Below are positions 8,999 through 64,000 of a stretch of 64,000 nucleotides of DNA, piece after piece; position 1 is the first letter of the stretch, and every line of letters begins with the position of its first letter. Source of the stretch: a virus. Position numbers and translations under genes: made by a program. Where the stretch lies: IMG/VR virus record IMGVR_UViG_3300039008_000120, positions 1 to 64,000 of that record; one strand, written 5' to 3'. The notes under the pieces were generated by a model, which ran no database searches, was not told the DNA's origin, and was given only the letters and a program-made list of their open reading frames with translations.

Positions 8999-9066
8999 AC
9001 CTTTTTAAAATATTATATTACACAATATTATACTATTTTTATGATGTCAAATGATAATTGTGTTTA

Positions 9067-9095
9067 TTGACAGTTTTTATATTATATACTATACT
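9067..9095 (+). promoter_or_regulatory. sigma70-like promoter (TTGACA-N17-TATACT)
   Basis: TTGACA at 9067-9072, 17-nt spacer, TATACT at 9090-9095, upstream of the 9144 ATG. Confidence 0.6.
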
Positions 9096-9106
9096 CTGAT
9101 TTTACA

Positions 9107-9117
9107 ATCTGTTAAAT
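9107..9117 (-). promoter_or_regulatory. ATTTAACAGAT motif followed by N3-TAAAAT
   Basis: Minus-strand TATTTAACAGATTGTAAAAT, about 110 nt upstream of the 8998 start in a divergent intergenic region. Confidence 0.35.
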
Positions 9118-9143
9118 ATAAATGGGAGTTATTGGGGGTTATA

Positions 9144-9551
9144 ATGTACACGGATAACATAATAAATGAGATAGTATTTAAAGGAATTAATAAATCTAAT
9201 AATGAATGGGTTTATGGATCATATTTTTACTCAAATAATACACATTATATAATAAACTCAGATACAGAAACTGTTAAAATTGCTGGATTGTGTAACATTG
9301 AACATAATAGTATTAATCAAATTGAAATTTGGGGTAATACTATATGTCAATTTATCGGGTATTATGATCAAAAAGATAAAAAAATATTTAATCGAGATAA
9401 GGTTCAATATCATTATAATGGTAATGACTATATCAGTGAAATAATTTATACACCAAATAGATTAATTATATGTGATAAACCATATCATGTATTAAATGAT
9501 GGGATATTATATAACTGTAATGTTGTTGGTAATATATTTGATCATCAATAA
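9144..9551 (+). CDS. YopX-like protein
   Basis: Track ORF 9051..9551 trimmed to the ATG at 9144 (RBS GGGGGT). EWVYGSYFY ... IEIWGNTICQFIGYYDQKDKKIF fits the YopX pattern. Confidence 0.55.
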   Translation: MYTDNIINEIVFKGINKSNNEWVYGSYFYSNNTHYIINSDTETVKIAGLCNIEHNSINQIEIWGNTICQFIGYYDQKDKKIFNRDKVQYHYNGNDYISEIIYTPNRLIICDKPYHVLNDGILYNCNVVGNIFDHQ

Positions 9552-9601
9552 TATATATTATTTAAATATTAAAACTATAGGATTTGGGTTAATATTTTTC
9601 A

Positions 9602-9630
9602 TTGACAACTACAATTAAAGATGATACTAT
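9602..9630 (+). promoter_or_regulatory. sigma70-like promoter (TTGACA-N17-TACTAT)
   Basis: TTGACA at 9602-9607, 17-nt spacer, TACTAT at 9625-9630, upstream of the 9665 ATG. Confidence 0.55.
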
Positions 9631-9664
9631 TTAATAAAAAATAATAAATAAGGATATATAAATA

Positions 9665-10285
9665 ATGGATTACCTTGAGGATTTTAGATATGGAGAAGAC
9701 ATATTGTTCAAAGCAATAAGTAAAGAAAAAAGGGAGTGGGTGGAAGGGTTATACATCAATATACAAGATAAAAATAAACTAACCCATTATATAACAAGAC
9801 CTTCAGGTGAAAAAATTGAAATTTGGCACAGTACGCTATCTATATTTACAAATATGATTGATGTTGACAATGTTAAAATATTCACAAACGATATAATTCA
9901 ATGTAATCCAGATATAATAGATCCAGTAAGAGATCATATTAAGTTTGAATCCGCAATTGATCAAATGAGTGGGGAATATATAGTATCTGATGATGTAAAC
10001 AGTTATGATCCTGATGTACGAGAAACCCCAATTTTTACATTATCTGAAGTTAATAATATTAAGGTTGTTGGAAATAGATATGATGATGCAAAAGAAATAA
10101 GCTTTAAAAAACTAAAAACTAAACGACAAAAACAAAAAGATAGAATTAACAATATTATTGCTGTTGTTAATGACAAAGACGATGCACTAAATGTTGATTA
10201 TATAAAAATGGAATATAACAATAATACTATACATGCAATTGTTTCAATTGTTCAAAAAATGTTATCAGATATTAAAAATATTTAA
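9665..10285 (+). CDS. YopX-like protein with a C-terminal extension
   Basis: 206-aa track ORF. REWVEGLY ... IEIWHSTLSIFT...VKIFTNDI is paralogous to 9144 and 10300. Confidence 0.5.
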   Translation: MDYLEDFRYGEDILFKAISKEKREWVEGLYINIQDKNKLTHYITRPSGEKIEIWHSTLSIFTNMIDVDNVKIFTNDIIQCNPDIIDPVRDHIKFESAIDQMSGEYIVSDDVNSYDPDVRETPIFTLSEVNNIKVVGNRYDDAKEISFKKLKTKRQKQKDRINNIIAVVNDKDDALNVDYIKMEYNNNTIHAIVSIVQKMLSDIKNI

Positions 10286-10299
10286 TGAAGGAATAATAT

Positions 10300-10692
10300 A
10301 TGTACGAAGACATTAGATATGGTGAAAAATTATTTAAAGCTATCTGTAAAAATAGCTTAAAATGGGTATATGGTTCGTATATATTCAAAAAATATTTGGA
10401 AAAAAATCAACATTATATATATAATAATGGTAATGAAATCTTAGTTTGGGGGAATACTGTATGTCAGTTTACTCACTGTTTTGATAAAAACCAAAATAAA
10501 ATATTTGAAAACGATTTATTAAAATTCCATGCTGTTAAATTAAATTCAACCAACCAAGAATTTTCTTTTATCTCAAGTATTGTTTTTGTTAATGGAAAAT
10601 ATATATTGGCTGATGAAATGAACCCAAAAAAATCTGGTAGTGAAATATCAGATGGAATAATAATAGGAAATAAATATGATCCAATACAGTGA
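10300..10692 (+). CDS. YopX-like protein
   Basis: 130-aa track ORF. KWVYGSYIF ... ILVWGNTVCQFTHCFDKNQNKIFENDL. Confidence 0.55.
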   Translation: MYEDIRYGEKLFKAICKNSLKWVYGSYIFKKYLEKNQHYIYNNGNEILVWGNTVCQFTHCFDKNQNKIFENDLLKFHAVKLNSTNQEFSFISSIVFVNGKYILADEMNPKKSGSEISDGIIIGNKYDPIQ

Positions 10693-12102: not shown

Positions 12103-13956
12103 TTAAATACCAAACATAGCACCCAAAGCACGAGACATTTTACTATCACCATTATTTTTCCCGGCACTTATTTGTTGTAATTGTCTCAATTGTAAATCTA
12201 AACCAGTATGATTAATATCGTTTGCAATTATATATTCTTTTACTACTCTATTTTTTAATGAATCTTCAACCTCTCTTTGAACATTGGTTGCAGTTTGATT
12301 ATGTTTATTTTTATTTTGTTTCTAATATGTTTTAAGAAACCTAAGTATTTTTCGTGAACTCTTATGTTTTGTTTGTGCTTGTGCTAAGATCTCAACAGTG
12401 AAAATACATATTGCAGTTGCCATTAATAGATCATCATGTTCTAAACCAACAGGTTTCCCCCTTCGTTTAATTACAAATTTCATTGCCTCATCAACTAAGT
12501 CTTCTGGTAATGTTTTATGTTTATATAATAAATTTGTTGATAATGTTATTAATGCTTTTTTACGTGTTGAATCAGTTGTTACAAAACCTAGCTTATTGGG
12601 TTTACCATCGTTATCAATGTCAAATTCATATGTATCTGTTTTCTTTACATACCGTATATTTGGTAATAATAAATGTGATAAATCAGATTCTTCAAATTTT
12701 TTAATTAAATAAAAACCCCTATTTCGTTCAATCATTATTTTTGCCCACTGATCAGTCTTAATATTTTTATAATATTTAGACAACTCAAGTAAATTATCAA
12801 AAATATTAAGTCTGGTTAAGCATGTGGCCTCTATACGAGATTGTGTTAAATTCTATACTGTTATTGCATTATAATGTGAACCCTCTTCCTGAACATCAGC
12901 AGATATTAAATAATCATCAGTTTTTGTTCGTTTATAATACACCTTAACGTGATCAAGCATTGTATCAATTTCTTTTTGTTGATCAATTAACATTAATTTT
13001 GTATCTTGAAAATATGTATCATACGGTAGAATCCACTGCATATCAAGCTCTGTTTTAATTGCTTTTTTATCATAATTAAGTAATTTACACTGCTCATCAT
13101 ACTAATCTTGATCACGATATGGTATTGTATCCCATGCTCCCTCAATTAGACGAAATCCAGACCCCTTAAATCCTTTTTTACGAACTGATTGGATTTGATT
13201 ATAAAACCATGAACCATATAAATTAGGTGTAGATAATACTATCATCTTACCATTTGTTGCAGATAGTGTGAATAATGAAGCCTTAAATATCTGTTCAACT
13301 CCATTTAGATAATCTGCTTCATCTAGTATAAGCCATGATGCTGACTGTGAACGACCAGATTGCTTTCCACTTGTCTGAGCAATAATTTTACTTGAATTTC
13401 TCTTATTACCTAAAACAAATTCTTTTTCATTTCTTTTAAGCTCTGATCTTCTTAAAAACCACGGAAGAGAATCATATTGAAACTTAAATTCACTAAGTGT
13501 CTCAATGGAATCTTTTTCGGTTTTAGAATATAATAATACTGTCTTGTTATTGTTAAATGTTAAAAACTATAATGCACACGCTAAGCTTGTCGTAGTGAAT
13601 CCAATTTGCCGTGATTTTGTACTGATAACTTTATCATCGTTAAATATGGCAGTTGCTAATTCAATCTGAATATCATACATTACAAATTTAACCATATCAC
13701 CCAGACATCTATTTTTTAATATTTCTGGCATAGTGTCTGGGTTATCAAACTTGTTCTTAACATATATATATTCATTTATAAAGTATAGCCAAGACTCTCT
13801 ACATTTTTTACGCTCTTCTTTAATTGTCTCTAATGTAGCATCACCTGTTATAAGTCTTCTTAACTATATTTTATCAACCTCATTAAGTTTACCTTGATCA
13901 TTTCTCACTTTTAATTTCTTTATTAAAGCTAATGTTTTTTTATCAAACTTTACCAT
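12103..13956 (-). CDS. terminase large subunit (617 aa, 5 in-frame TAG)
   Basis: One frame runs from the ATG at 13956 to TAA at 12103-05 and absorbs track ORFs 12853..13041 and 12322..12783. TAG at 13864, 13567, 13102, 12853 and 12322. Walker A-like KSRQIGFTTT, Walker B WLILDEADY, nuclease-half LEHDDLLMA. Confidence 0.8.
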
Positions 13957-22102: not shown

Positions 22103-22723
22103 ATGAATGTTAATATTGAATCTATACGACAAAAAATAAATGAGATAACTGAAAAAATTAATAATGCAACATCTCAAGATGAACGTGATGAGTTGTTCCG
22201 TAAACGTAAATTTTAGTTAAACTCATTACATACTAAAAAACATAAAACTCGACTTGCAGAAATACAACGTTGTGCTAAAAATGCAAAACCTGAACCAGTT
22301 GAACCAAAAACACCTATTAAGGTTGTAATTAAAGAGGTTCCTGTTGAAATCATTAAAGAGGTTCCTGTTGAGGTTCCTGTTGAGGTTCCTGTTGAAAAAG
22401 AAATTTTAGTTGCAACAGATTCATCGGGTATTCCAGATATAATACATACTGATGAATTTATAGCAATACTGAAACAAATTAGAGAAAATTATATTAACAC
22501 CCAAACAAATCTAAAAGTTGGTGATATTGTTACAACCGCAGATAATACCAAAGTAAAAATAAAAGAATTTATCATTGATGAAAAAAGCGTTTTTAATAAA
22601 AATGGTGGAATTTTTGCTAAGGTTAAAAAAATAATGAACAATAAAAATGAAAGTAAACGATTTTTTGGTAAAGATCCAAGAGGGATCCAAGTAACTTTAT
22701 TAAACAAGGTTGAATCAAAATGA
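22103..22723 (+). CDS. hypothetical head-module protein with EVPV repeats (206 aa, 1 in-frame TAG)
   Basis: ATG at 22103 with a GGAG RBS. TAG at 22214-16. The TGA stop overlaps the next ATG (ATGA). Confidence 0.55.
22334..22393 (+). repeat. GAGGTTCCTGTT 12-nt coding repeat (4 copies, 3 in tandem)
   Basis: Copies at 22334, 22358, 22370 and 22382, encoding EVPV units. Confidence 0.85.
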
Positions 22724-24177
22724 CAAATAAAATAAATTTTTTAGATATTTTGCATAATCACGATAAAAAAGAATCAACATCTAGTGCAGATTTTGAACAT
22801 AATGCTCTGTTAAATAATGTAAAATATAAAGAAACTGATACACATATGTAGATTTATAATTTCCCGGGGAGTTTTGGTGACACCCAAAATAAAAATAACA
22901 GAGTATATGATTAGTCAACATTAAAACAAGCAACCACGTAGTTCCTTGATATTAAGGATTCAAACCCCTATTTTACATACATTTTCGATGGACATAGGGA
23001 TGATGATAGCTATGAAAATATTATAGGACGGATAGTAAATCTACACCCTGATGAAAGCACTAAGTGCATTTTAGTTGATCTTAAACTTAACAAAGGTTCA
23101 AAATCTTACAAAACAATCGAAAATATTATCAAAGATAAGGATCCTATCGGAATATCAATGAGAATAATTTCACCAGACACATTAGTTATGTCAAAAGAAG
23201 AGATTAGTCAAATAAATGAAAGTATATTATGGTTAGAAAATGATAACCCTAGTCTTTCAAAATTAATGTCTAATGACGATGAGATTGAATATGTTGTTGG
23301 AGAAGCATTTATATGGAGATTTGATCTAACATAGTTTCCTAGTTTTAACCGATCGTTTGTTGGTGAATTAGGTAAAACAAAAAACGAATCAGCCATTTCA
23401 TTTACAAAAACAATAGATTCATGTGGTTTGTTTGCTAAAAATGATAAGTGTATAACCGACTCTTGTAAGTTTAAACATACAATTAAAAGCTTTTTAGATA
23501 TTATCAATAATAGTAAAGATGAATCAATTACACTAATAAATGAACATCCCACATTATACGATGACATGCTAAAATTTGCATATATGAATTTATCAGAATT
23601 TAACTTTGATGAAATAAATTCAGAAAAATATTTAAGAGAAAAATTATCTGATTTTGAAATATCAAGCGGTGACAAAGATGATTAGATAAAAACCATCAAT
23701 GATATATGTGGTAAAAATAACATATTATCATATGTTACATCAAATAATTTAATTGATGTTGATAAATATGTTAAATTGGTTAATACTACTTTAACTAAGC
23801 TCATTAACGTTGATGAGATTTTTTATCAAATGGTAAGCACTAATTACTTACACTAGTTAATAGTCTCAACATTAATATTAGACAATAAAGTTAATGTAAA
23901 AATAAAAAATATTGACAATTTAAAAACCTTATTACAAGATACTGCTGATATAGAAAAAGATACCAACATTGATATTTTAGTAAAATTTCTAAATGATATG
24001 GATAAAACTGAAATCAATGTATATGATTTTACTAATATGATATTTACTTATATATATGGATACTTTGTTAGGTATACTGATGAAATACCACCAATCACAA
24101 TTCTAAATGAATCATTTAAAAGATTTTATAAACCAAATACAAAAAAACTATTTAAACACTCTTTTGCCAAAAAATAA
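22720..24177 (+). CDS. prohead protease-like protein (T4 gp21-like N-terminal half; 485 aa, 6 in-frame TAG)
   Basis: One frame from 22720 to TAA at 24175-77. TAG at 22849, 22912, 22939, 23332, 23683 and 23854. NKNNRVYD / FDGH / FDLT*FPSF resemble my recollection of gp21 NRNKRLYP / LNHP / VDAVWGPSA. Lies directly upstream of the scaffold and capsid genes. Confidence 0.5.
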
Positions 24178-24266: not shown

Positions 24267-24280
24267 TATATAAAAAAATA
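24267..24280 (+). promoter_or_regulatory. TATATAAAAAAATA box (late-promoter candidate)
   Basis: About 60 nt upstream of the scaffold ATG. A second TATATAAAAAAT lies at 24241-24252. Confidence 0.25.
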
Positions 24281-24339
24281 TAATTAATATGGTAACATTA
24301 TTTAGTTTTAAAATAACCAACAATAAAAAGGTAATATAC

Positions 24340-26040
24340 ATGTTAAAGAATAAGTTAATTAAACAGTTAAAAGACCTTATTTCTACAAAGAAAGAAGGTG
24401 AAATGACTGTTAAATTAGATGATGAGTCATCTAATATTTATGCAGAATTGTTAATACCGTTTATGGAGTTAACTCAGTCTGAAACACTAGAAGAGCTATC
24501 AATTGCTTTAAATGCATTAGTTGATAATAATGAAGCAGATGAACTCTATAAAAGTATTATCACAATTTTCATGGAAGAAATTAGTGAAGTAGATGAGTAT
24601 GATAAGGAACTTGATACACTTTCAGATAATATCATTGCCGTTTCTAATACATTCAATAATCTTAAAGAACAAAAAATAGTAAACGATGACAAAACTGAAT
24701 CTACTGAATTTGATAAGCTATCAGATGAAATTGTTAAATTTCTAAATGAAGATAATAATGGTGATACTAATGATGGTGGCGATGTAAATAACACTGATGG
24801 TACTGGAGACGTCAATACAAACGATGGTAATACCCCTGATAATACACCATCTGGTGATGAGAATGTTTTAGGTGACTATATACTATCCGATGATATTGAT
24901 GAAACTAAATGGTCTGAGATAAATAAAATCGAGTTAAAAAATCGTCTTGAAACAGAATTAACAAATGCTCCTGATGATAAAAAAGAAGATATAAAAAAAG
25001 TAATTAATGAAGTATATGCGATCGTTAGATCAGATGATAAAGCAGACTAGCTTTACCCACATCATACAATAAATGATAAAAATGAAATTCAACTAAATAA
25101 AAATGGTTTAACATCCGCAACACTAATGTTCCTTAAACCAAGTAATAGTAAAAATCTAACAACAGATGAAAAAACTGCTATTGCAAAACACCTAGTTAAA
25201 CATTACTCAAAAAATGAGATTGATGCACCTGCTAAACTTACTAAATTATCAGAATCTAAAGAGTCCACCATCATAATCAACGTAACAGATGATGAAATGA
25301 CAGAATTTGGTGAATTTTTTAAAGTCGGGGCTGGTGATGTTGGTGTATATGTTGGACTCATTGAAAACCTTTTAACTGACTTAACAAATTCTGGAATTAT
25401 TCAGTTAGATGGAAATGATGATAACAGCAACTATGATGAATCAGTTATTAGTGTTAAGTTGAACAAAGATCAAGTTAAAGAGGTTATCAATTATTTAGAT
25501 ATTATAAGCACTGATGTAATTAAATTACTATCGAATGATTTTGACTCTCTTTCATATAAAGCAACTGATGATGAATTAACTACATCATTTAAAGAAGCAA
25601 CCGCTATGGTAACATCTTTAAAAGAAAACGTTGAAGAGCTTGAGTCAACAATTGCTGAGCGAGATGAAGAAATTGCATCATTAAAGCTCAAAACTGATAG
25701 TGAAACATTAAATAAAAGCAAGTTTGAAGCAATTATCAACTTTATAAAAACAATTGAAGATGTAGATGATAATATTTTAAATTTCATGGAAAGTGTTATC
25801 GAAACAAATAATGAAAATGAAATTAATTATCTCCTTAAATTAAGTGGAAATTTCATGAAACAAACAAATAAACCACCTACATTTAAAAAGGTTAGTATGA
25901 TTAATCAGGTTGATTCTCAAAGTTTAGAAAGATTTAATAACATTCTAAATAATGATGTAGTAAATCAATCAAACAACGAATCAACTAAAATTACAGATGA
26001 AGTTTCAAAAACCGTTAATTCTATTGCGGAATTATTTTAA
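24340..26040 (+). CDS. scaffolding-like acidic protein (566 aa, 1 in-frame TAG)
   Basis: Track ORFs 24289..25050 and 25126..26040 share a frame and are joined by TAG at 25048-50. Start moved to the ATG at 24340 (AAGGT RBS). Acidic and coiled-coil-like, with an AD*LYPHH motif. Confidence 0.55.
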
Positions 26041-26095: not shown

Positions 26096-26108
26096 AAGGG
26101 TTAAAATA

Positions 26109-27236
26109 ATGAAAAAACCGATGATTGATATTAGTAAGATTGGATTAGACAATAAAGAATCATTAGAAGTTGCAGGGTTCACTTCTAAAGCTAAAGAAAA
26201 GTATCAATTAGATGCTCATAAAAGTGATACTCTAAATTTAATGTATTCAAACATTTATCGTCAATTTAAAGTATTTAAGGAATCCAATGCTGGACAGGTT
26301 TCCAGCGATATTGAACCATTTAGAAATATTGCGATTGTTGCTACAACTAAATTCTTCACTCAAAATATTTTAAATAAATTGGTATCCATGCAGACAACAG
26401 ATAGTCCATATGGTTTAATTACATATGTTGATTTTCAGTATGCTGATGATCATACACCTGATAATATAAAAGCTGGGGATTCTATAGTAAAAAGATCAAA
26501 AACATATGGAAATCACGACACTGAACAAACAAAATCAAGAAGAATTAAAACAAGCGTAACAAACAAGCCTATTACTGCTGGTGTGAGAACAATTGAAGCG
26601 AGTTATACATTAGAATCTTGGTTGGCTATGGCATCTATTAAAGGACAAAAAGATGCCAAAAACTTTTTAGATAAAACATATCTCGAAGTAATTGCATCTA
26701 AATTAAGGGATGAAGCAGAATTTGCTACAATGGATGCACTTTATTCTGCATGTTTACCTCAGCATATTGTACCATTTAGTGTTGATGGTACTGATTGTGA
26801 TGCAAGAGATTGTGATGCTAGAAAATTCCTAGATAGCATCGAAGAGGCTGGGCAGAGAGTGTACGATACACACAAAGTATAGCCTAACACAATTGTAGTT
26901 GGTTCAGACGCAATGAAAATCATTCGCCGTGGTGAAGTGAAGATTGTTAATAAAAAAGGTTCTGATGGTTTACCATCATCTGTTGCTCGAAATTATCAGG
27001 GTGTAATGGATGATAGATATTCAATACTATATGACCCAGAGCTTTCGGGAGCATTAATGACTTGGAAAGACTCTAATTCAACGTTCGGAGCATCCGCCGT
27101 ATATACAAGTGTGGTGCCTCTTGCTGTAACTCCACCTATAACAGAGAAAGACTTAAGCACTTACCGTGTAGTTTATACAGTTGACAGTGTTGACGTAGTT
27201 CATCCAGAGTTAATTGCACGAGTAGATATAGTTTAA
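26109..27236 (+). CDS. major capsid protein (375 aa, 1 in-frame TAG)
   Basis: Track ORFs 26109..26882 and 26913..27236 share a frame and are joined by TAG at 26880-82. Follows the protease and scaffold genes, and a strong terminator follows it. Confidence 0.65.
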
Positions 27237-35169: not shown

Positions 35170-36453
35170 TCAATCTAAATCTCCACCATCTTCAGCGAAG
35201 AATAGTATAATTTTACCGTCTCGTGCATTACTATCTGTTGTACATTTTACTAGAACTGTATCGTTCTCCTTAAAATCAACATTCAAATCATTAACCACAA
35301 CACCTGTTGCAGATGAAATTGTTATTATACTCAAATCATTTGGTTCGTTGTTTTTTCTTACATGAAACTTTAAATTAGATGTAGATCTAATTGTTGCACT
35401 AGCACCAACTAAAACTGAATTTTTGGGTATTTTCAACCCCCCAAGATTTGACGGAATATTCCCTATTGTACGTAAATACATATTTCTACATATACCAGTT
35501 TTACCAAGCTCAAATTGAAAGCGATTTCCTAGCTATTTCTCACGTTCACTGTCTTTTATATAGTATGTATTATTAATAATTTTGAAATTATTTAAAACAT
35601 TATCACATGATTTTAATTTTTTATCAATCAGTTCGAGTACTTTGGATAAAGATTCTCCGACCTTTGAACCAATTGTACTAAGGTCTGCAATTGTTGAAAT
35701 TTCGGTGGTTTTGTGTTTTCCGGGTTTACCATTTAAATGTGATCCAAAATCAATATCACCGATTTTCCCCCATGATGTAGTTGTGGTGGTACCATCACTA
35801 TCAATGCCATGCACATACTGAGCTTGTTTACCGTCACCATCGTCATCAATTACAACACCATAGTTATCTTTAACTGGGTTATCTGCTGACAATACAAAGT
35901 CAGTGCCATCATATTCATAAACTTTATTATCGGTTATATTAATAATTCTATCAGCAATTTTAACATCACCAATTGATACCCACTTACCATCAATTACTTT
36001 GAAATATGATTTTGATGTAGAATTGTAATATATACTACCTTCTTTACCAACATCCGGTTCAGTTGCAGATATATTTAAAAAATATTTAATTGGTGTTAAC
36101 TAAACACTAGGTGAACCAAAACTTGGGGCACCGAATATATTGTCCCAGTGAACCTTTGATTCACCTGCTTTCCCCAGTTGTTTTTTGCTATAATAATGTC
36201 GCTCAAGATCTAAGACATTTTGTCGCCTTAAATACTTCAGTGCATCTTCAATAGATAGGTCATCATCACCATCATTTACAATAATTGAACCGGCAGTAAT
36301 TAATGTCTTAAGATCTTCTGATGAACATAGCTCACCATAGTCAAATTGATCACTGGTTAGTATATTCTCTGATCCCTCCAATACCAAACCAATATCTGGT
36401 ATTTCCAAATCACCCGGATTTTGATTTTTTAAATATATAGTCTAATCTGCCAT
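35170..36453 (-). CDS. tail fibre protein B (427 aa, 3 in-frame TAG)
   Basis: One frame from the ATG at 36453 to TGA at 35170-72 joins track ORFs 36100..36408, 35533..35892 and 35170..35481. TAG at 36442, 36100 and 35533. Shares the N-terminal DLKTLITAGSI(I/V)VNDG module with fibre A. Confidence 0.7.
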
Positions 36454-36471
36454 AGTTAATTACCTCATTAT

Positions 36472-37092
36472 TTAAATTAACTGTAATGTTAATATTGGTT
36501 TATCTAATCCATCTTTTGAATCGATATAACATGAAATATTATCATTTTTATTAAACATTATATCTTTATCAAAACCGGTTGCATATTTAGCATTATCTAA
36601 ACTTATTGTTAAAATAACATTATTATTATTTTTTATTTCAACAACCCCAGTGTTGTGCTTGCTTGTTCTTAAAATCTACCGTTTTAGCGTTTTTTTACGC
36701 AAAACAGTATAACCATGTAAATTAGTTGGTATTCTAGTTAACTAATGCATATATCGTTTTTTTACGTGATTAGTATTAATATAAAAATGTATTTCACTTA
36801 TATCAACTACTGTACTATCTAGTGGTATACTTGCTTTTCCTAGTTTTTCCTAATTATTAATATCTTGGAAATTTTCATCAGTTAACCGATATAAACCATT
36901 ATTCGTTTCAATATCATTATAAACTGAAACAATCATACCACGATATGTATATACATACCCATCATTTGCTTCCCAGATACTTGTTTTACACAAATCTGAT
37001 TTATATTCAACTCGACTCCTAGCATCAAGTGGTGCTGATTTTTGAGGTTCGAAGTTAGCGGAAAAACTACTAGTTCCTTTTTCTCTTCCCAT
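36472..37092 (-). CDS. tail or baseplate-region hypothetical protein (206 aa, 3 in-frame TAG)
   Basis: ATG at 37092 with a GAGGT RBS. Track ORF 36850..37092 continues through TAG at 36850, 36742 and 36676 to TAA at 36472-74. Confidence 0.55.
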
Positions 37093-37113
37093 CTTACACT
37101 AACCTCTTTTTTA

Positions 37114-38004
37114 TTAATTTGTGTACCATCTTAGTGACCTATAACCGGTTTTACTACCATTATGTATATACCTAACATAATCAATAGTATTACCATGTAT
37201 TTCATGCTGAGTTGAAGTTTTTGTGAACGTTCTTAAACTATTTTCTTTTGTTCCTGATATCTATTCCTACTTCCCCGAAACAGTATTATAAAATTGAATA
37301 CCTGTTATATTTTTCCATAGTACCGGAAAATCAACTGTTTGTTTCTTGTCAGTTTCTTCAATTTCAACCACACACTCTACATATGTACTTGACATTGATG
37401 CAAGTTTTTGTTTAGAAAGCATCGATATATGTTTTGATGTTGCAAAAAATGGATATACACCGATAATCTCACAGCTACTATAATTAGTATACCCACTATT
37501 TAATTTTTTTTTGTAAGGTCTACCTTTATTTGTCAGTGGCTGTTCACCACCTTCAAACAAAACTCTACATTTCTATTGTGTAGAACCACGTATAACTTCA
37601 TATGAAATTGTTTGTGTATTTGATAGTTGATTTGATATAATTTTATCTGGAACTGTTTTTCCTAAAAAATTGTATTCTTTTGGTAAACCAGAACGAAACC
37701 CACTAGTACCATATGCTGGATTAATATATCCCCGGTTAAAATTTGCAATAATATCAAGATTCGGTATAATTTCACCAATTTCTCGAAACCCACTTACAGA
37801 GCTTCGAAGTGTTACGCTTGGGTTACCTAACCTAGGATAACGTTCTGGATATAATAACATATCCTACATTTCAGTCATTGTATTCTCATCGAAGGTTTGA
37901 CCTATATTTATACCCCCAACTGCAATTTCAACCGGATCATCATTTGAATATAAAACATCACATGATGTTGAAGTTGAATCATATTTATTGTTATATTTTA
38001 ACAT
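37114..38004 (-). CDS. tail or baseplate-region hypothetical protein (5 in-frame TAG; in-frame TGA at 37201-03)
   Basis: ATG at 38004. The frame joins track ORFs 37573..37860 and 37267..37560 through TAG at 37864, 37573, 37267, 37261 and 37237. It then meets TGA at 37201 but stays open 28 more codons to TAA at 37114-16, just before the next RBS. The true end is either 37201 or 37114. Confidence 0.5.
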
Positions 38005-50778: not shown

Positions 50779-52659
50779 TTACCATATTACATTTAACTTA
50801 AAATCATAAGAATATATACTATAATTATGACTTTTAGATACAAGATTAATTTTCCTCGATGAACGTTTACGTTTAAATTTATTTGAATCATGATTTTTAT
50901 TAGTTATATTTGTTAATACATTATTTCCTGATTCAAATAGAGATAGAATATCTTCATCTTCAACCGGTTCAATATTATTTTCTAAGTCTTCGTCGGTGAT
51001 ATCCTCTAATATATCAGACATTACATCATTCGGAAATAGTTTATTAAGAATAAATTCATCTTTAATGTTCATTCCCAACATTTGTTCTAACTGGGTAAAC
51101 ATTGTAACAAATTTTGACGACTTATCTAAATCTGTTTCTTTTCGTTCACTCATTGGAACAAATTCAGGTATATTAACATTTAAATATTTAATGTCTAAAT
51201 CTTTATAATTAACACCTAACTACTTTTCCATCTAAAACGTTAATATATTATTTAACATTACTTGATAATGGCGAATTTTCATTGAATAAACATTATCATG
51301 TAGTGCCAACATGCTATTATTCTGATATGTTTTGGCATTACTTGATTTTCTATAATGTAAAGGAATACCCATAGTATGATATACCTTATCCTACCAGTAA
51401 TCAATGTCATCCAGTAGTGGCTTGTATTCAGATTTTAATGTGTCTATTTTTAAATTTTCACCCTCAGTTGGAACAATCAAATTTGAATCTATGAGATTTT
51501 TTACAATATCAAAACTCATTTGATCTGTTGTTTCATCAAAATTCATTGCTGATTTCGATTTTACTAAATTTCGATATAACATAAGTGTGTTTGCAATGTC
51601 TTCATCTTCAATTTTTTCTAAATCCAATTTCCAAATGTGAGTTGTTTTAGATTTCGATAATCTCTCTATTAATAATGACAACTCTAACAGCTCGATAACT
51701 TTTAAATAATTTATAACTTTGTCAACTTGAGATTTTCCAATTACACCTTTTTCAGCAATGAAAAACATGTTCTCGGATTTTAATTCTGTACCATCTTCGA
51801 TTTTAAATATACTAATATTCTTATTGGTTATTTTTTTTAAATGATCATCTTCATCTATTGTTTTAAACATAGTGGTTGATGAATTACCTGATGATTCAAG
51901 TAAATCATTACTAATTTTTGTTGAATTTATTGTAGTGTTACCATTTGAAGTTTCCTTAAACACTACCTCATCAAGGCTATAAAAACTAACATCTGAATAT
52001 GTCTTAACGTCATCAAAATAAAAAATTCCACACCCATACCGCAAAATACTGTTTACTAAATTATACAATGAAAGTTTAATATTATTTCTCTTTAATAAAT
52101 TTCCAATCGCTAGTGATATTTCTTTGTGATGTGAATCAACTTTTTCAACGTTGTTGTTATAAATAAGCTGATCAACCTCTATATTTGGAACATTGATATC
52201 ATCGATAATATCAGTAGAATCGGATGTAGTACTATCGTTTATATATCTAGTATCTATTTTTTTCTCCAAAACTTTATACTCACCGAATAAATTAACCTCA
52301 ATCTTTCTTTTATTTGATGATGATGTATATATAATAGATGATGCTAACATATCTATTAAATATTCAATTTCTGGAAAACGATCTAAATATAAATTAACTC
52401 TATTAATTAATGATAATTTAGAATCAAAGCCACCATTAACTGTAACAATACCTAACCTATTAAATAAATCAGTGCTAACATTATTAATAAATTCATTCGA
52501 TTCATTTAACACATTATATGCACTACTTCGTGCAGTTGGTAACGACTTTGATATTAAATTATCAAGCTCCCCAGTTTTAACTAATTCTTTACCCTAAGAC
52601 ACCCCATTACTTTTTTTCTCAAAGTTAAGTGAATGTCGTTTTTTTGTAAAATTTATCAT
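50779..52659 (-). CDS. portal protein (626 aa, 4 in-frame TAG)
   Basis: One frame from the ATG at 52659 to the stop at 50779 joins track ORFs 51391..52512 and 50779..51153. TAG at 52594, 51391, 51232 and 51220. DMLASSIIYTS and DDIDYW*DKVYHTMGIPLHYR resemble T4 gp20 segments as I recall them. Acidic C-terminal tail. Confidence 0.7.
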
Positions 52660-60938: not shown

Positions 60939-61709
60939 TTAAAACGAATCAACTATTTCATCGATTAGTTTTAGTTCTAATGCATCTTTAGCCATAATAT
61001 ATGATTCACCTTTCATAAAGGTGTCAATTGCTTCTTTTTTTGCACCAGTATTGTCTTTTAAAATTTGACTTAGGGTTTCTTGTAGTTGTGTCTAAAATTT
61101 AGCATAGTCCATGAGTTGGCTATATTTACCATGGGCACCGGCAGAAATAGAATGGATCATTAAAACTGAATTTTTTGTTGCTTTTTTGACTGCACCAGCG
61201 GAGCTTATTATAATTCCCATACTAGCGGCGATTCCAGAAACAATAGTAGTTACAGGATATTTATTCGACTTAATAGCATCATGAAAACGGAGACCTTCAA
61301 TAACACTACCACCGTTACTATTTATGATCACAGTTGGTGTTAGTGTCCCTTTTAATGATGGATAATCGTGTTCCATCGCATTGATGTTTTTGTTTATTCT
61401 TTTTAATTGATCAAGTGCCCGATTAATTGTATATTTTTCTACATAACCATCAAAAAATAATGTTGTGGCATTCAGCATTCGAACATCACCATAATCCATC
61501 TAATAATAATTTTCAGGTTGATCATCATCGGTATTTATGCTTTCACTACGGTCACTAAAATCAACATCATCTGGTGTTAATTTTGTGGATTCATTAAGTA
61601 ATTGATCAGTTGGAAAAAAAGGACTTTTATTTAATAAACCTTCTTCAACACTGGGCATTTTATTAACTTTTGTTTTATTATCAACAGCATTTTTATTTTT
61701 TTTTGACAT
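60939..61709 (-). CDS. ClpP-family (S14) serine protease (256 aa, 2 in-frame TAG)
   Basis: ATG at 61709 (AAGGT RBS). TAG at 61500 and 61092 join track ORFs 61500..61766 and 61092..61499 plus a 51-codon tail. INSNGGSV, GIAASMG (Ser) and LMIHSIS (His) motifs. Confidence 0.65.
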
Positions 61710-61722
61710 TGTATTTGTACCT

Positions 61723-62775
61723 TTATCGTTGTAAATATTTAAATAAATTTTCACTATCACTTTCACCCATTAAGCCATATTGCTTAATGAATTGCTGTAT
61801 TGAATTAATTTGAATTTTATTATCTTTAGGATAAATAATATCATCAAAAATCTTATTTAATTTAACTTTATCTAATTCACTAATAATATCATCGTTGAAA
61901 ATATTACAAATATATAAGTTTCTCCTGAACTCTTTTTCAAATTTACTCAATATTTGGGGTGTTTTAAATTTCTTAGAAAAATATTGTAATATTGAATCAT
62001 ATGTAACATCAATATCATCCAAATAACAATCTCTAAAAAAATTTTCAAAAATAGTCTTCGATTTTATACCAAATGGCTTTTTAATGTTATCTGAACTATC
62101 ACCCATTAATGCTTTATATAAAATAAATTCCGATATATTTTTTAAATACGGAAAATCTATTATATCACATATACAATCAATATTTTTTATTAAAAAATTT
62201 TTTGAACCTTTATTGGGTGCAGTATATTTATAAATTACATCAGTATTGTTTTCATCAAACGCCATTAGATAATCTTTATCATGACTAATCACTAAACTTT
62301 TTTGTTTAATATTATTATCTTTTAATTTTTTAAGAAAATATCCAATTACAAAATCTGCTTCATTTGTTACCAGATTTGATGGAACAACAACTTCATTGAG
62401 TAAACCAAATATTTCGGTTAACAATAAGCAATTATAATCATATAAGTTTTTTGTATTCCAATCAAATACTCCTTTGGTTCGTTTTGATTTACTTCGATTT
62501 AGTTTATATTCTGGATATATTTTTTTTATGTTAATAGATATTCCACCATCAAATGTAAATATAAACTTACTTTGTGGTAAAACTTGTTTCAAGTTAATAT
62601 AAAATTTTATAGTTTCAATGAATGGAGTTATATTTATTCGATCCATTGATAAATTTTTTTCTAAATTCAAATAGGGAGTAATTGTCAATGAACTAACATC
62701 AACAAAAACATAATTGTATTTATTATACAAAGCTTTTTTATTATTAATAAAATTCAAAATTTCACAATTACTCAT
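61723..62775 (-). CDS. FEN / 5'-3' exonuclease (T4 RNase H-like)
   Basis: 350-aa track ORF. VFVDVSS, YPEYKLNR, NEADFVIGY, SHDKDY and GDSSDNIK motifs. Confidence 0.7.
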   Translation of the reverse strand: MSNCEILNFINNKKALYNKYNYVFVDVSSLTITPYLNLEKNLSMDRINITPFIETIKFYINLKQVLPQSKFIFTFDGGISINIKKIYPEYKLNRSKSKRTKGVFDWNTKNLYDYNCLLLTEIFGLLNEVVVPSNLVTNEADFVIGYFLKKLKDNNIKQKSLVISHDKDYLMAFDENNTDVIYKYTAPNKGSKNFLIKNIDCICDIIDFPYLKNISEFILYKALMGDSSDNIKKPFGIKSKTIFENFFRDCYLDDIDVTYDSILQYFSKKFKTPQILSKFEKEFRRNLYICNIFNDDIISELDKVKLNKIFDDIIYPKDNKIQINSIQQFIKQYGLMGESDSENLFKYLQR

Positions 62776-63122: not shown

Positions 63123-63258
63123 TAATTTTTTCTCACTTTTAATATTATTTAATTAATTCAACTAATATTAAAAAATGAAAAAGTCAAATACTTTTTTCAT
63201 TTTTTTCCCCTGTTAATAATATTTAAATTTATTTATTTATAATTAATATAAATAATAT

Positions 63259-63288
63259 ATAAATAATAATATTTATATTATTATTTAT
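63259..63288. repeat. perfect 13-bp inverted repeat with a TTTA loop
   Basis: ATAAATAATAATA-TTTA-TATTATTATTTAT within an almost pure A/T intergenic region. Confidence 0.8.
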
Positions 63289-63296
63289 ATATAAAT

Positions 63297-63337
63297 ATAT
63301 ATAATATATATCCCTTTAGGGGATATATATTATATAT
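63297..63337. repeat. 18-bp inverted repeat with a TTTA(G) loop
   Basis: ATATATAATATATATCCC-TTTAG-GGGATATATATTATATAT. Confidence 0.8.
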
Positions 63338-63486
63338 ATTATTAAATATACTTAATTCTTAATAATATTTTATATTAATTAAATATATTTAATTATAATT
63401 ATTATTAAGTATTATTAACAGACACACACACCCGTGGGTTTTTTTGTGATATATATATAATTAAAATATAATTTTGGAGTTGTTAG

Positions 63487-64000
63487 ATGAGTTCACAAAT
63501 TGATTGTTACTTTGGAATTAGACCAACTGGTAATAAGCTTCACTTAGGTCACTTAATGACACTTTTTGATATGTTTGATTTTATAGTAACAAACATAAAT
63601 CACGTTAATAATATATATATTCTTTTAGCTGAAATCCATGCTCAAATATCAAAAATTTCAATAGAAAAAATTAAGTTAAATTCTAAAGATTTACATATTC
63701 AAATTTTAGAAGTATTTAATATATTTTTGAGAATGAGAAATATATCTCCTGAAAAAATTAAATATTTAAATAATAAAATTAAATTTATATATCAGTCTGA
63801 TTTTGAAACTCATGTTAATATCACATATACATATTTACCACTTGTAAACACAAATAAAGTATTAAAAAATCCAATTTTCAAAAACAATAATAACAACAGT
63901 GTCGGCTTTTTAATTTATCCAATTTTACAAACGTTTGATATTATATTATACTCACCAAACAGCAAAGATACTGATCTTTATGTTTTTGTGGGTGGTGATC
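63487..64000 (+). CDS. trpS: tryptophanyl-tRNA synthetase-like class Ic aaRS, 3' end outside the window
   Basis: ATG at 63487 with a GGAG RBS, open to the window end. GIRPTGNKLHLGH (HIGH), ILLAEIHA, ISPEK, FIYQSDFETH, IFK, SVGFLIYPILQTFDIILY and VFVGGD align in order and spacing with bacterial TrpRS: G.QPSG..TIGN, CIVDQHA, IDPEK, F.QS.VPEH, QFK, AGL..YP.LMAADILLY and VPVGEDQ. Confidence 0.7.
   Translation, partial: MSSQIDCYFGIRPTGNKLHLGHLMTLFDMFDFIVTNINHVNNIYILLAEIHAQISKISIEKIKLNSKDLHIQILEVFNIFLRMRNISPEKIKYLNNKIKFIYQSDFETHVNITYTYLPLVNTNKVLKNPIFKNNNNNSVGFLIYPILQTFDIILYSPNSKDTDLYVFVGGD

Follow-up and report, generated by a model that had tools for sequence, protein, structure and literature searches.

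A putative TAG-to-tryptophan code and a candidate Fe-S-type tryptophanyl-tRNA synthetase in a clade of AT-rich jumbo phages

Among phages whose genetic code is unlike that of their hosts, only two reassignments, TAG to Gln and TGA to Trp, have been seen (Borges et al., bioRxiv 10.1101/2021.08.26.457843), a limit that surveys of recoded phages explain by the tolerance of the host glutaminyl- and tryptophanyl-tRNA synthetases (GlnRS and TrpRS). The Jade phages encode a TrpRS, a tRNA-UCA and release factor RF1 for TGA-to-Trp in a single operon beside the lysis genes (Borges et al., bioRxiv 10.1101/2021.08.26.457843). Two TrpRS:tRNA-UCA pairs, AP1 and HF2, insert Trp at UGA, and one of them is orthogonal in E. 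coli (Seki et al., PMC12636597). Phages with a TAG-to-Gln code, including crAss-like, Lak, Agate and phAss-1 phages, carry TAG mainly in structural genes and encode a tRNA-CUA and sometimes RF2, in hosts presumed to use the standard code; Gln is supplied by the host GlnRS and no dedicated synthetase is involved (PMC10607447). Outside viruses, TAG is read as Trp in the extremely AT-rich plastid genome of Balanophora (bioRxiv 10.1101/2025.03.29.646081).

We have analysed 64,000 nucleotides of phage DNA (positions 1 to 64,000 of IMG/VR record IMGVR_UViG_3300039008_000120; hereafter the window), together with further contigs of the same phage and of its relatives. We propose, at a probability of roughly 0.6, that this phage reads UAG as Trp in roughly one gene in three, chiefly those of the virion, by means of a dedicated system of TrpRS, RF2 and tRNA-CUA. 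The arrangement appears to be a mirror image of the TGA-to-Trp module, and the reassignment seems to have no precedent in viruses; the literature searched, a limited collection of papers, contained no account of a phage with TAG-to-Trp. As with Jade, AP1 and HF2, a phage TrpRS would act with a suppressor tRNA and a release factor that spares the recoded stop, and Trp would be inserted. Also as in Jade, the code-change genes keep to the standard code and most recoded stops are in presumed late genes. Unlike Jade, the recoded stop is TAG rather than TGA, the tRNA anticodon would be CUA rather than UCA, the release factor is RF2 rather than RF1, and the parts are spread over ~30-37 kb instead of forming one operon. 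The tRNA-CUA appears to be of class II with U73, unlike the AP1 and HF2 tRNAs, which carry G73 or A73, and the TrpRS appears to be of the Fe-S type, the Jade and AP1 enzymes having been compared by description and not by sequence. The bias of TAG towards structural genes, the presumed tRNA-CUA and a presumed standard-code host, and in some cases the RF2, are shared with the TAG-to-Gln phages, from which this phage would differ in inserting Trp. The Balanophora plastid shares the meaning of TAG and the AT-richness, yet its reassignment is organellar and genome-wide, and the parts of that preprint consulted mention no dedicated TrpRS/RF2/tRNA kit. For the related phages taken together, we lean towards a clade of AT-rich jumbo phages with a TAG-to-Trp code that is new to viruses, operated by an orthogonal Fe-S TrpRS and a class-II tRNA-CUA with U73 and backed by RF2.

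The synthetase gene lies at the very end of the window, where an ATG at position 63487 opens a frame of 171 codons that runs without stops to the last base, in DNA with a local GC content of ~20%:

63487 to 64000, plus strand: trpS-like gene, first 171 of 338 codons, in which residues 19-22 read HLGH and the Trp-pocket motif is YPILQTFDIILY; no TAG and no TGG codon.

A reading of the sequence alone (the sequence-only reading) had identified a class Ic synthetase here, and the motifs on which it relied (HLGH, ILLAEIHA, ISPEK, FIYQSDFETH, GFLIYPILQTFDIILY and VFVGGD) are all found in the 171-residue frame. This fragment matches Pfam PF00579 (tRNA-synt_1b, W and Y; E=3.5e-17). It does not separate TrpRS from tyrosyl-tRNA synthetase (TyrRS), as its NCBIfam scores are 40.9 and 40.5 bits for tyrS and 39.4 bits for trpS; its PDB sequence matches are a mix of families, and a word-index protein search with it returned no match. 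A Logan contig of 160,307 bp, with 100% identity to the window across the overlap, supplied the full trpS gene, which encodes 338 aa and, unlike the fragment, clearly favours TrpRS over TyrRS. The full-length protein, with which relatives surfaced in the protein search, scores 79.6 bits on trpS (TIGR00233) versus 54.7 bits on the best tyrS model, with the NCBIfam equivalog cut-off of 176.75 not reached. Its top PDB sequence match is the Thermotoga maritima TrpRS 2g36 (E=1.8e-14, ~21-25% identity). An AF2 model (pLDDT 87, pTM 0.87) has a fold of the TrpRS type, with a small helical anticodon-binding domain and without the C-terminal domain of TyrRS, and the top 50 Foldseek matches of this model in the PDB are all TrpRS, with TM-scores of 0.53-0.68 and 2g36 first. 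The closest cellular homologues are 23-27% identical, and every named full-length database relative is annotated as TrpRS.

The motifs of the complete protein are in keeping with this assignment. KMSKS is intact at residues 208-212, and D151 is the equivalent of the Trp-binding Asp132 of Bst TrpRS and is invariant in the phage clade. The same Asp is also present in TyrRS. The HIGH motif takes the TyrRS-like form HLGH, the position of TrpRS Phe5 is Tyr in seven of eight phage homologues, and the synthetase has a Tyr at what we take to be the position of TyrRS Tyr32. Residues C249, C272, C279 and C282 show exactly the C-x22-C-x6-C-x2-C spacing defined for [4Fe-4S] TrpRS (PMC2954223); they align to the four cysteines of 2g36, and all five cellular homologues that were aligned have the same motif. 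Across the phage clade, HLGH, KMSKS (KISKS in one of eight), a YP[IV]LQxFD[IV] pocket motif with the invariant Asp, D-Q and the four Cys are conserved. The gene very probably encodes a TrpRS-family enzyme. Judged by its sequence, this would be an active-looking TrpRS of the [4Fe-4S] type, neither a TyrRS nor a dead paralogue; HIGH, KMSKS and the Trp-pocket Asp are all kept.

TAG is essentially never a true stop in the window. Standard-code open reading frames of at least 100 aa end with TAA in 45 cases, TGA in 9 and TAG in 12, and 11 of the 12 that end with TAG run on in frame for 50-329 codons. With TAG read through, there are 19 frames of at least 300 aa instead of 12, whereas readthrough of TGA brings no such merging. 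In-frame TAG codons, one to six per gene, are present in ~25 of the ~75 genes of the window, mostly virion genes; those for the terminase, the fibres, the head protein, baseplate-like proteins and a ClpP-like protease are among them. TAG is absent from trpS, the rII operon and the release-factor gene. The genes and codons that bear most on the argument are as follows:

12103 to 13956, minus strand: large terminase (TerL; T4 gp17-like), 5 in-frame TAG; served to decode TAG.
13567 to 13569, minus strand: TAG codon at TerL residue 130; W in 114 of ~140 homologues.
13102 to 13104, minus strand: TAG codon at TerL residue 285; W in 114 of ~130 homologues; TAG at this site in two other phage lineages.
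17209 to 18711 and 18855 to 20543 (17209 to 20543 overall), minus strand: two fibre-like or structural genes, 6 in-frame TAG each.
22714 to 24177, plus strand: gene without assigned function, 6 in-frame TAG.
35170 to 38004, minus strand: three structural genes with 3, 3 and 4 in-frame TAG.
50779 to 52659, minus strand: 626-codon gene, 4 in-frame TAG, no PHROG family match; a portal gene at a guess, from its size and position only.
60939 to 61769, minus strand: ClpP-like protease gene, 2 in-frame TAG, one of them aligned to W or F in relatives.

A protein search with a 4158-aa concatenate of TAG-containing proteins gave just three irrelevant fibre-repeat matches. When a TAG-free segment of the terminase was run with HMMER against 1.84 billion representatives, 150 homologues were returned; at the sites of TAG codons 130 and 285, where W predominates, Q occurs in 2-3. 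A TerL profile was built from 92 standard-code homologues, and log-odds were summed over the TAG columns of three TAG-recoded TerLs, those of the window and of two relatives. The sums were +31.4 bits for W, +8.4 for Y, +8.0 for F and -11.4 for Q. For the window TerL alone W scored +10.2 bits, and W was ahead of Q by 14 bits (43 over the three TerLs). Two of the columns that hold TAG are 52% and 72% W in the profile. The W content of the terminase family averages 1.95%, and the 7 TGG and 5 TAG codons of the window terminase together amount to 1.94%. Of the closest database terminases, two carry 'Q' where W is conserved (P0044 in both columns, P0041 in one of them), and the underlying DNA is TAG in each case; TAG thus fills conserved Trp columns in several lineages, mistranslated with code 15.

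Comparison within the clade led to the same amino acid. In these alignments TAG is most often opposite TAG, next W and next Y; of 186 informative pairs, 55 are with W. As controls, genuine TGG-encoded Trp aligns with W in 58% of cases, with Y in 15% and with TAG in 8.4%, while genuine Tyr aligns with Y in 62% and with W or TAG in less than 1.8%. By empirical likelihood, with substitution frequencies taken from these very alignments, the lead of W in the window phage is 36 bits over Y and 98 bits over Q, and Q trails W by 517 bits clade-wide, although the clade bits count sites against several relatives and so overstate independence, the ranking being unaffected. W is the maximum-likelihood meaning of TAG in seven of the eight phages, and Tyr is second-best in all tests. 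The weakest case is a relative with a 276-kb contig, where W is ahead of Y by only 9.7 bits; in a genome so rich in TAT, a surplus of Y partners would be expected if single-base TAT-to-TAG changes replace Tyr by Trp. The contigs of the window phage itself are 99.9-100% identical to the window, so that there is no strain variation to show TAG/TGG swaps. Three independent approaches (deep homologues, shared TAG sites and the within-clade comparison with controls) concur, and TAG very probably means Trp in this phage, which upholds what the sequence-only reading had claimed for these codons.

A release factor is encoded at a distance from the synthetase. In the window phage its N-terminus (the first 145 aa of a 362-aa protein) is found ~29 kb downstream of trpS (L078:20116-20552), and the fragment scores 78 bits on prfB versus 37 on prfA, which identifies it as RF2. 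The 276-kb relative has a 370-aa release factor with the SPF and GGQ motifs ~36 kb downstream of trpS (prfB 357.5 versus prfA 228 bits). The two phages have a common gene order in this region, namely a PolB-like gene, a patatin gene on the opposite strand, four small genes, a gene for a 506-aa DnaB, a metallophosphatase gene, a small gene and the release factor. In the relative, ARAGORN predicted a 91-nt tRNA with a CUA anticodon (L035:17273-17363), 409 nt past the RF2 stop codon; a CCA-adding enzyme and a tRNA-Leu(UAA) are also encoded there. The trpS gene and the RF2-tRNA pair are thus 29-37 kb apart and not in a single operon. The ~104 kb of window phage DNA that were read yielded no tRNA, the syntenic site being expected 1-2 kb past the last locus read, and no Rfam family was found in the window even at E<=1 or in the loci around the synthetase. 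By analogy with the relative, the window phage probably carries the same tRNA-CUA just after RF2.

The tRNA-CUA of the relative stands out as GC-rich from the AT-rich intergenic spacer around it and has a cloverleaf as its fold of minimum free energy, with a fold z-score of only -1.5. In our own structural reading, it has a 7-bp acceptor stem (C1-G72), U73, an encoded CCA end and a 5-bp anticodon stem with the loop CUCUAAA. The variable arm is long (4-bp stem, 6-nt loop) and gives it a class-II shape. The D-loop is without the usual GG and the T-loop is UUUGAAU, with U for C56; both partners of the 19-56 tertiary pair could thus have changed together. A scan for stem pairing found this to be the only credible CUA cloverleaf across all phage loci. 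In a search of 421 nt, the Rfam tRNA model did not detect it at a threshold as loose as E<=10. A degenerate pattern of this tRNA had 39 matches in JGI metagenomes, of which 37 were without a tRNA and two were a different class-II tRNA-CUA of another element, and scans with an RF2 alignment of IMG/VR and GTDB genomes retrieved just the known contig and cellular prfB, mostly from Neisseriaceae. The tRNA-CUA that the sequence-only reading looked for has therefore been located beside RF2 in a syntenic relative and not in the portion of the window phage that was read, and it lacks the Trp-like acceptor and discriminator features expected of it, its variable arm being long and its discriminator U73 in place of G73. 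Of the self-contained recoding system that was envisaged, TrpRS and TAG as Trp are supported in the window phage, which also has an RF2 gene, while the tRNA-CUA part comes from the relative only.

We envisage the following course of events. The first gene of what would be an early operon is trpS, ahead of genes for a glycosyltransferase, rIIA, rIIB, dCTP deaminase and dNMP kinase. Early in infection the phage would make TrpRS, tRNA-CUA and an RF2 that terminates at UAA and UGA and not at UAG. The code-change genes are free of TAG and hence translatable by a standard-code host. Going by E. coli identity rules, the tRNA-CUA, being of class II with U73 and C1-G72, should be a poor substrate for the host GlnRS, LeuRS, SerRS and TyrRS, and such poor use would explain the need for a dedicated synthetase. 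The phage TrpRS would then load the tRNA-CUA with Trp, allowing late genes with in-frame TAG to be translated. On the simplest view, the code-change system is a dispersed one whose TAG-free TrpRS and RF2 genes and tRNA-CUA are expressed first. That charging would be done by the phage TrpRS rather than by a host enzyme is suggested by the co-occurrence of the parts.

The competing accounts differ in the amino acid assigned to TAG or in the role given to the synthetase. Membership of the ordinary code 15, the TAG-to-Gln code of crAss-like, Lak and phAss phages, with an incidental TrpRS, is the default assumption of present pipelines; the database proteins of two relatives carry Q at TAG, and RF2 with tRNA-CUA is the known kit of TAG-to-Gln phages. 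The homologue alignments of TAG go against Gln, which is the only residue of the four with a negative TerL score and has the deficits of 98 and 517 bits given above, and in one within-clade comparison not one TAG of the phage or of its relatives was aligned with Q, so that this account is barely credible. A Tyr code is improbable, if less so. It would involve a supF-like tRNA-CUA derived from a class-II tRNA-Tyr and charged either by the phage synthetase, acting as a TyrRS, or by the host TyrRS. True Y almost never pairs with W or TAG, yet over a quarter of the informative TAG pairs are with W; TAG sits in two TerL columns that are largely W; the full-length protein, the Fe-S motif and the fold all indicate TrpRS; and the tRNA-CUA has U73 where tRNA-Tyr has A73. 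These points outweigh a number of observations that a Tyr code would accommodate, namely that Tyr is second-best in every decoding test, that TAG in the 276-kb relative is aligned with Y 12 times and with W 9 times (with W nevertheless in the lead), that the long variable arm is as in bacterial tRNA-Tyr and recalls the tRNA-Tyr amber suppressors, and that the N-terminal fragment of the synthetase scores alike on tyrS and trpS and has both HLGH and a Tyr where we take TyrRS Tyr32 to lie.

Even if TAG is Trp, the synthetase might be a general translation booster for Trp-tRNA(CCA) that is unrelated to TAG, with a host enzyme charging the suppressor. We consider this unlikely, but of the alternatives it is the one to be taken most seriously. 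Other large phages, such as Microcystis phage MaAM05, have trpS with no recoding reported, the TrpRS and the RF2-tRNA pair are 29-37 kb apart, and host synthetases often charge phage suppressors, as proposed by Borges et al. (bioRxiv 10.1101/2021.08.26.457843). On the other hand, all sampled members of the clade combine TrpRS with in-frame TAG that behaves as W. The identity elements of bacterial TrpRS are the anticodon and G73, and an amber tRNA-Trp is charged with Gln (PMC9976931), so a host enzyme is unlikely to put Trp on a class-II tRNA-CUA with U73. GlnRS in turn requires U35 along with the discriminator base and particular pairs at 1-72 and 3-70 (PMC9976931). In its anticodon-binding domain the phage enzyme is also far from cellular Fe-S TrpRS, which favours a dedicated TrpRS for tRNA-CUA over a booster.

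This domain is strongly diverged throughout the phage enzymes. The Fe-S cluster and R224 of the T. maritima enzyme (TmTrpRS) have been modelled as readers of C34 that penalise U34 (PMC2954223, PMC4027196). The R224 equivalent is kept in P0001-P0004 and deleted in P0005-P0008, and the H242 position is Phe in the phage enzyme, so that the R-FeS-H motif is incomplete; by calculation, H242 is dispensable for cytosine binding (PMC4027196). The basic loop ahead of the first Cys is altered relative to cellular Fe-S TrpRS and is deleted in four of eight phage homologues. The window phage enzyme thus resembles 2g36 in the Cys motif, the R224 equivalent, HIGH, KMSKS and the Trp-pocket Asp, and differs from it in H242 (Phe), in the rewritten loop before the first Cys, in HLGH versus HIGN and in the low overall identity. 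As C34 is common to the CCA and CUA anticodons, only the recognition of position 35 would have to change, and the altered loop beside the Fe-S cluster would fit such a change.

If the TrpRS:tRNA-CUA reading is true, these phages evade the limit set by host GlnRS and TrpRS by bringing a synthetase of their own, and more codes are open to viruses than the two seen so far. Gene callers that apply code 15 insert Gln at conserved Trp positions of these phages. A TrpRS:tRNA-CUA pair ignored by host enzymes would also be an amber-suppressing tool for code expansion and a complement to the UGA-reading AP1 pair (PMC12636597), and the Fe-S cluster in the anticodon-binding domain offers a handle for testing the proposed role of the cluster in reading C34.

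The genome in which this gene set lies is that of a jumbo phage. From the coordinates of window and contigs it is at least 219 kb long, and the longest contig with the synthetase has 232,818 bp; whole contigs were found by exact look-up of two neighbouring window proteins in JGI and Logan contigs. The phage has 25% GC, and the window stays at 20-34% throughout. Its other genes include a T4-like large terminase, rIIA/rIIB-like genes, a ClpP-like protease and a major head protein. Neither a blastn search with 4 kb of the window against GenBank phages nor a search of IMG/VR with TerL 8-mer patterns found a match or a relative, respectively. An exact 42-mer of the window had no match in IMG/VR either, but nor did a control 41-mer taken from an IMG/VR locus, which makes negatives of this exact search unreliable. 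Relatives were identified through the TrpRS, which has seven further homologues at 41-48% identity on contigs of up to 166 kb and two more on IMG/VR contigs of 276 and 180 kb. In at least eight related jumbo phages that also use in-frame TAG, the gene is in conserved synteny as the first of the rIIA/rIIB operon. Each context that was read has a divergent junction, with a FEN-like nuclease gene and a small gene on one strand and the trpS operon on the other, in the order trpS, family-9 glycosyltransferase, rIIA-like, rIIB, dCTP deaminase/dUTPase and dNMP kinase. In the window, the region between the two operons contains the following elements:

63295 to 63339, no strand assigned: AT-rich hairpin (20-bp stem, CCCC/GGGG core) in the intergenic region from which the FEN-side operon (minus strand) and the trpS-rII operon (plus strand) diverge.
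63444 to 63472, plus strand: sigma-70-like hexamers TTGTGA-17-TATAAT, 15 nt upstream of the trpS start codon.

The hexamers are weak evidence for a promoter, as the scan that found them yielded fewer sites than shuffled sequence did. A GGAG lies 8 nt upstream of the trpS ATG. The hairpin is terminator-like on the minus strand.

Two window genes are each divided by a single in-frame TAG that links two open reading frames of the standard code. At 26097-27236 the linked frames are of 257 and 107 aa and together constitute the major head protein, so read-through of TAG is needed for a complete capsid protein. At 24274-26040 one TAG likewise joins frames of 253 and 304 aa. Two further features of the window are as follows:
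9051-10692: three YopX-domain genes, paralogues in a row (166, 206 and 130 aa), within a TAG-free block.
63230-63350: an extended AT-rich palindrome that includes a hairpin of 20 bp (core CCCTTTAGGGG). It lies within the 364 bp that separate trpS from the divergent gene upstream.

The TrpRS encoded by trpS (window 63487-64000 together with L001:8273-9289, from a contig of the same phage) has no tryptophan codon, TGG or TAG, among its 338 codons.

In public proteins of related phages, TAG has been rendered as Gln by translation under code 15. This applies to 4 TAG codons of the terminase P0044 (L018:10001-11797) and 13 of the terminase P0041 (L021:8610-10673), and the codons so rendered include terminase columns with a conserved Trp. 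If it is true that TAG means Trp, both database entries are mistranslated.

Two tRNA-related features were found in a 276-kb IMG/VR relative (locus L032) and in ENA metagenome contigs (L056 and L074):
L032:18513-19826: an open reading frame for a candidate CCA-adding tRNA nucleotidyltransferase, with GGxVRD and DIDIV head motifs and an HD domain.
L056:3989-4079 and L074:644-734: a second 91-nt, class-II-shaped tRNA-CUA.

The L032 frame bears the hallmarks of a CCA-adding enzyme as judged by eye from its motifs, and CCA is encoded in both tRNA genes of this relative. The L056/L074 tRNA-CUA belongs to an unrelated element, where it lies within a tRNA cluster adjoining a group I intron, and has in common with the tRNA-CUA of the 276-kb relative an unusual T-loop, UUUGAAU. 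Given this second tRNA, long-arm amber suppressors may form a wider family. Negatives of the viral-contig DNA pattern scan are untrustworthy, since it failed to recover an exact 41-nt pattern taken from an IMG/VR locus.

Gene calls differ in places. The glycosyltransferase gene beside trpS is called in two pieces (33 and 284 aa) in contigs L002 and L013, as opposed to a single gene of 413 aa. Between the PfkB-like gene and a 164-aa gene, the gene calls of contig L076 differ from those of L077:1192-1554 (Logan SRR21418663_684, a different assembly of the window's phage, from another sequencing run), which include a 120-aa Cas12f1/TnpB-like fragment.
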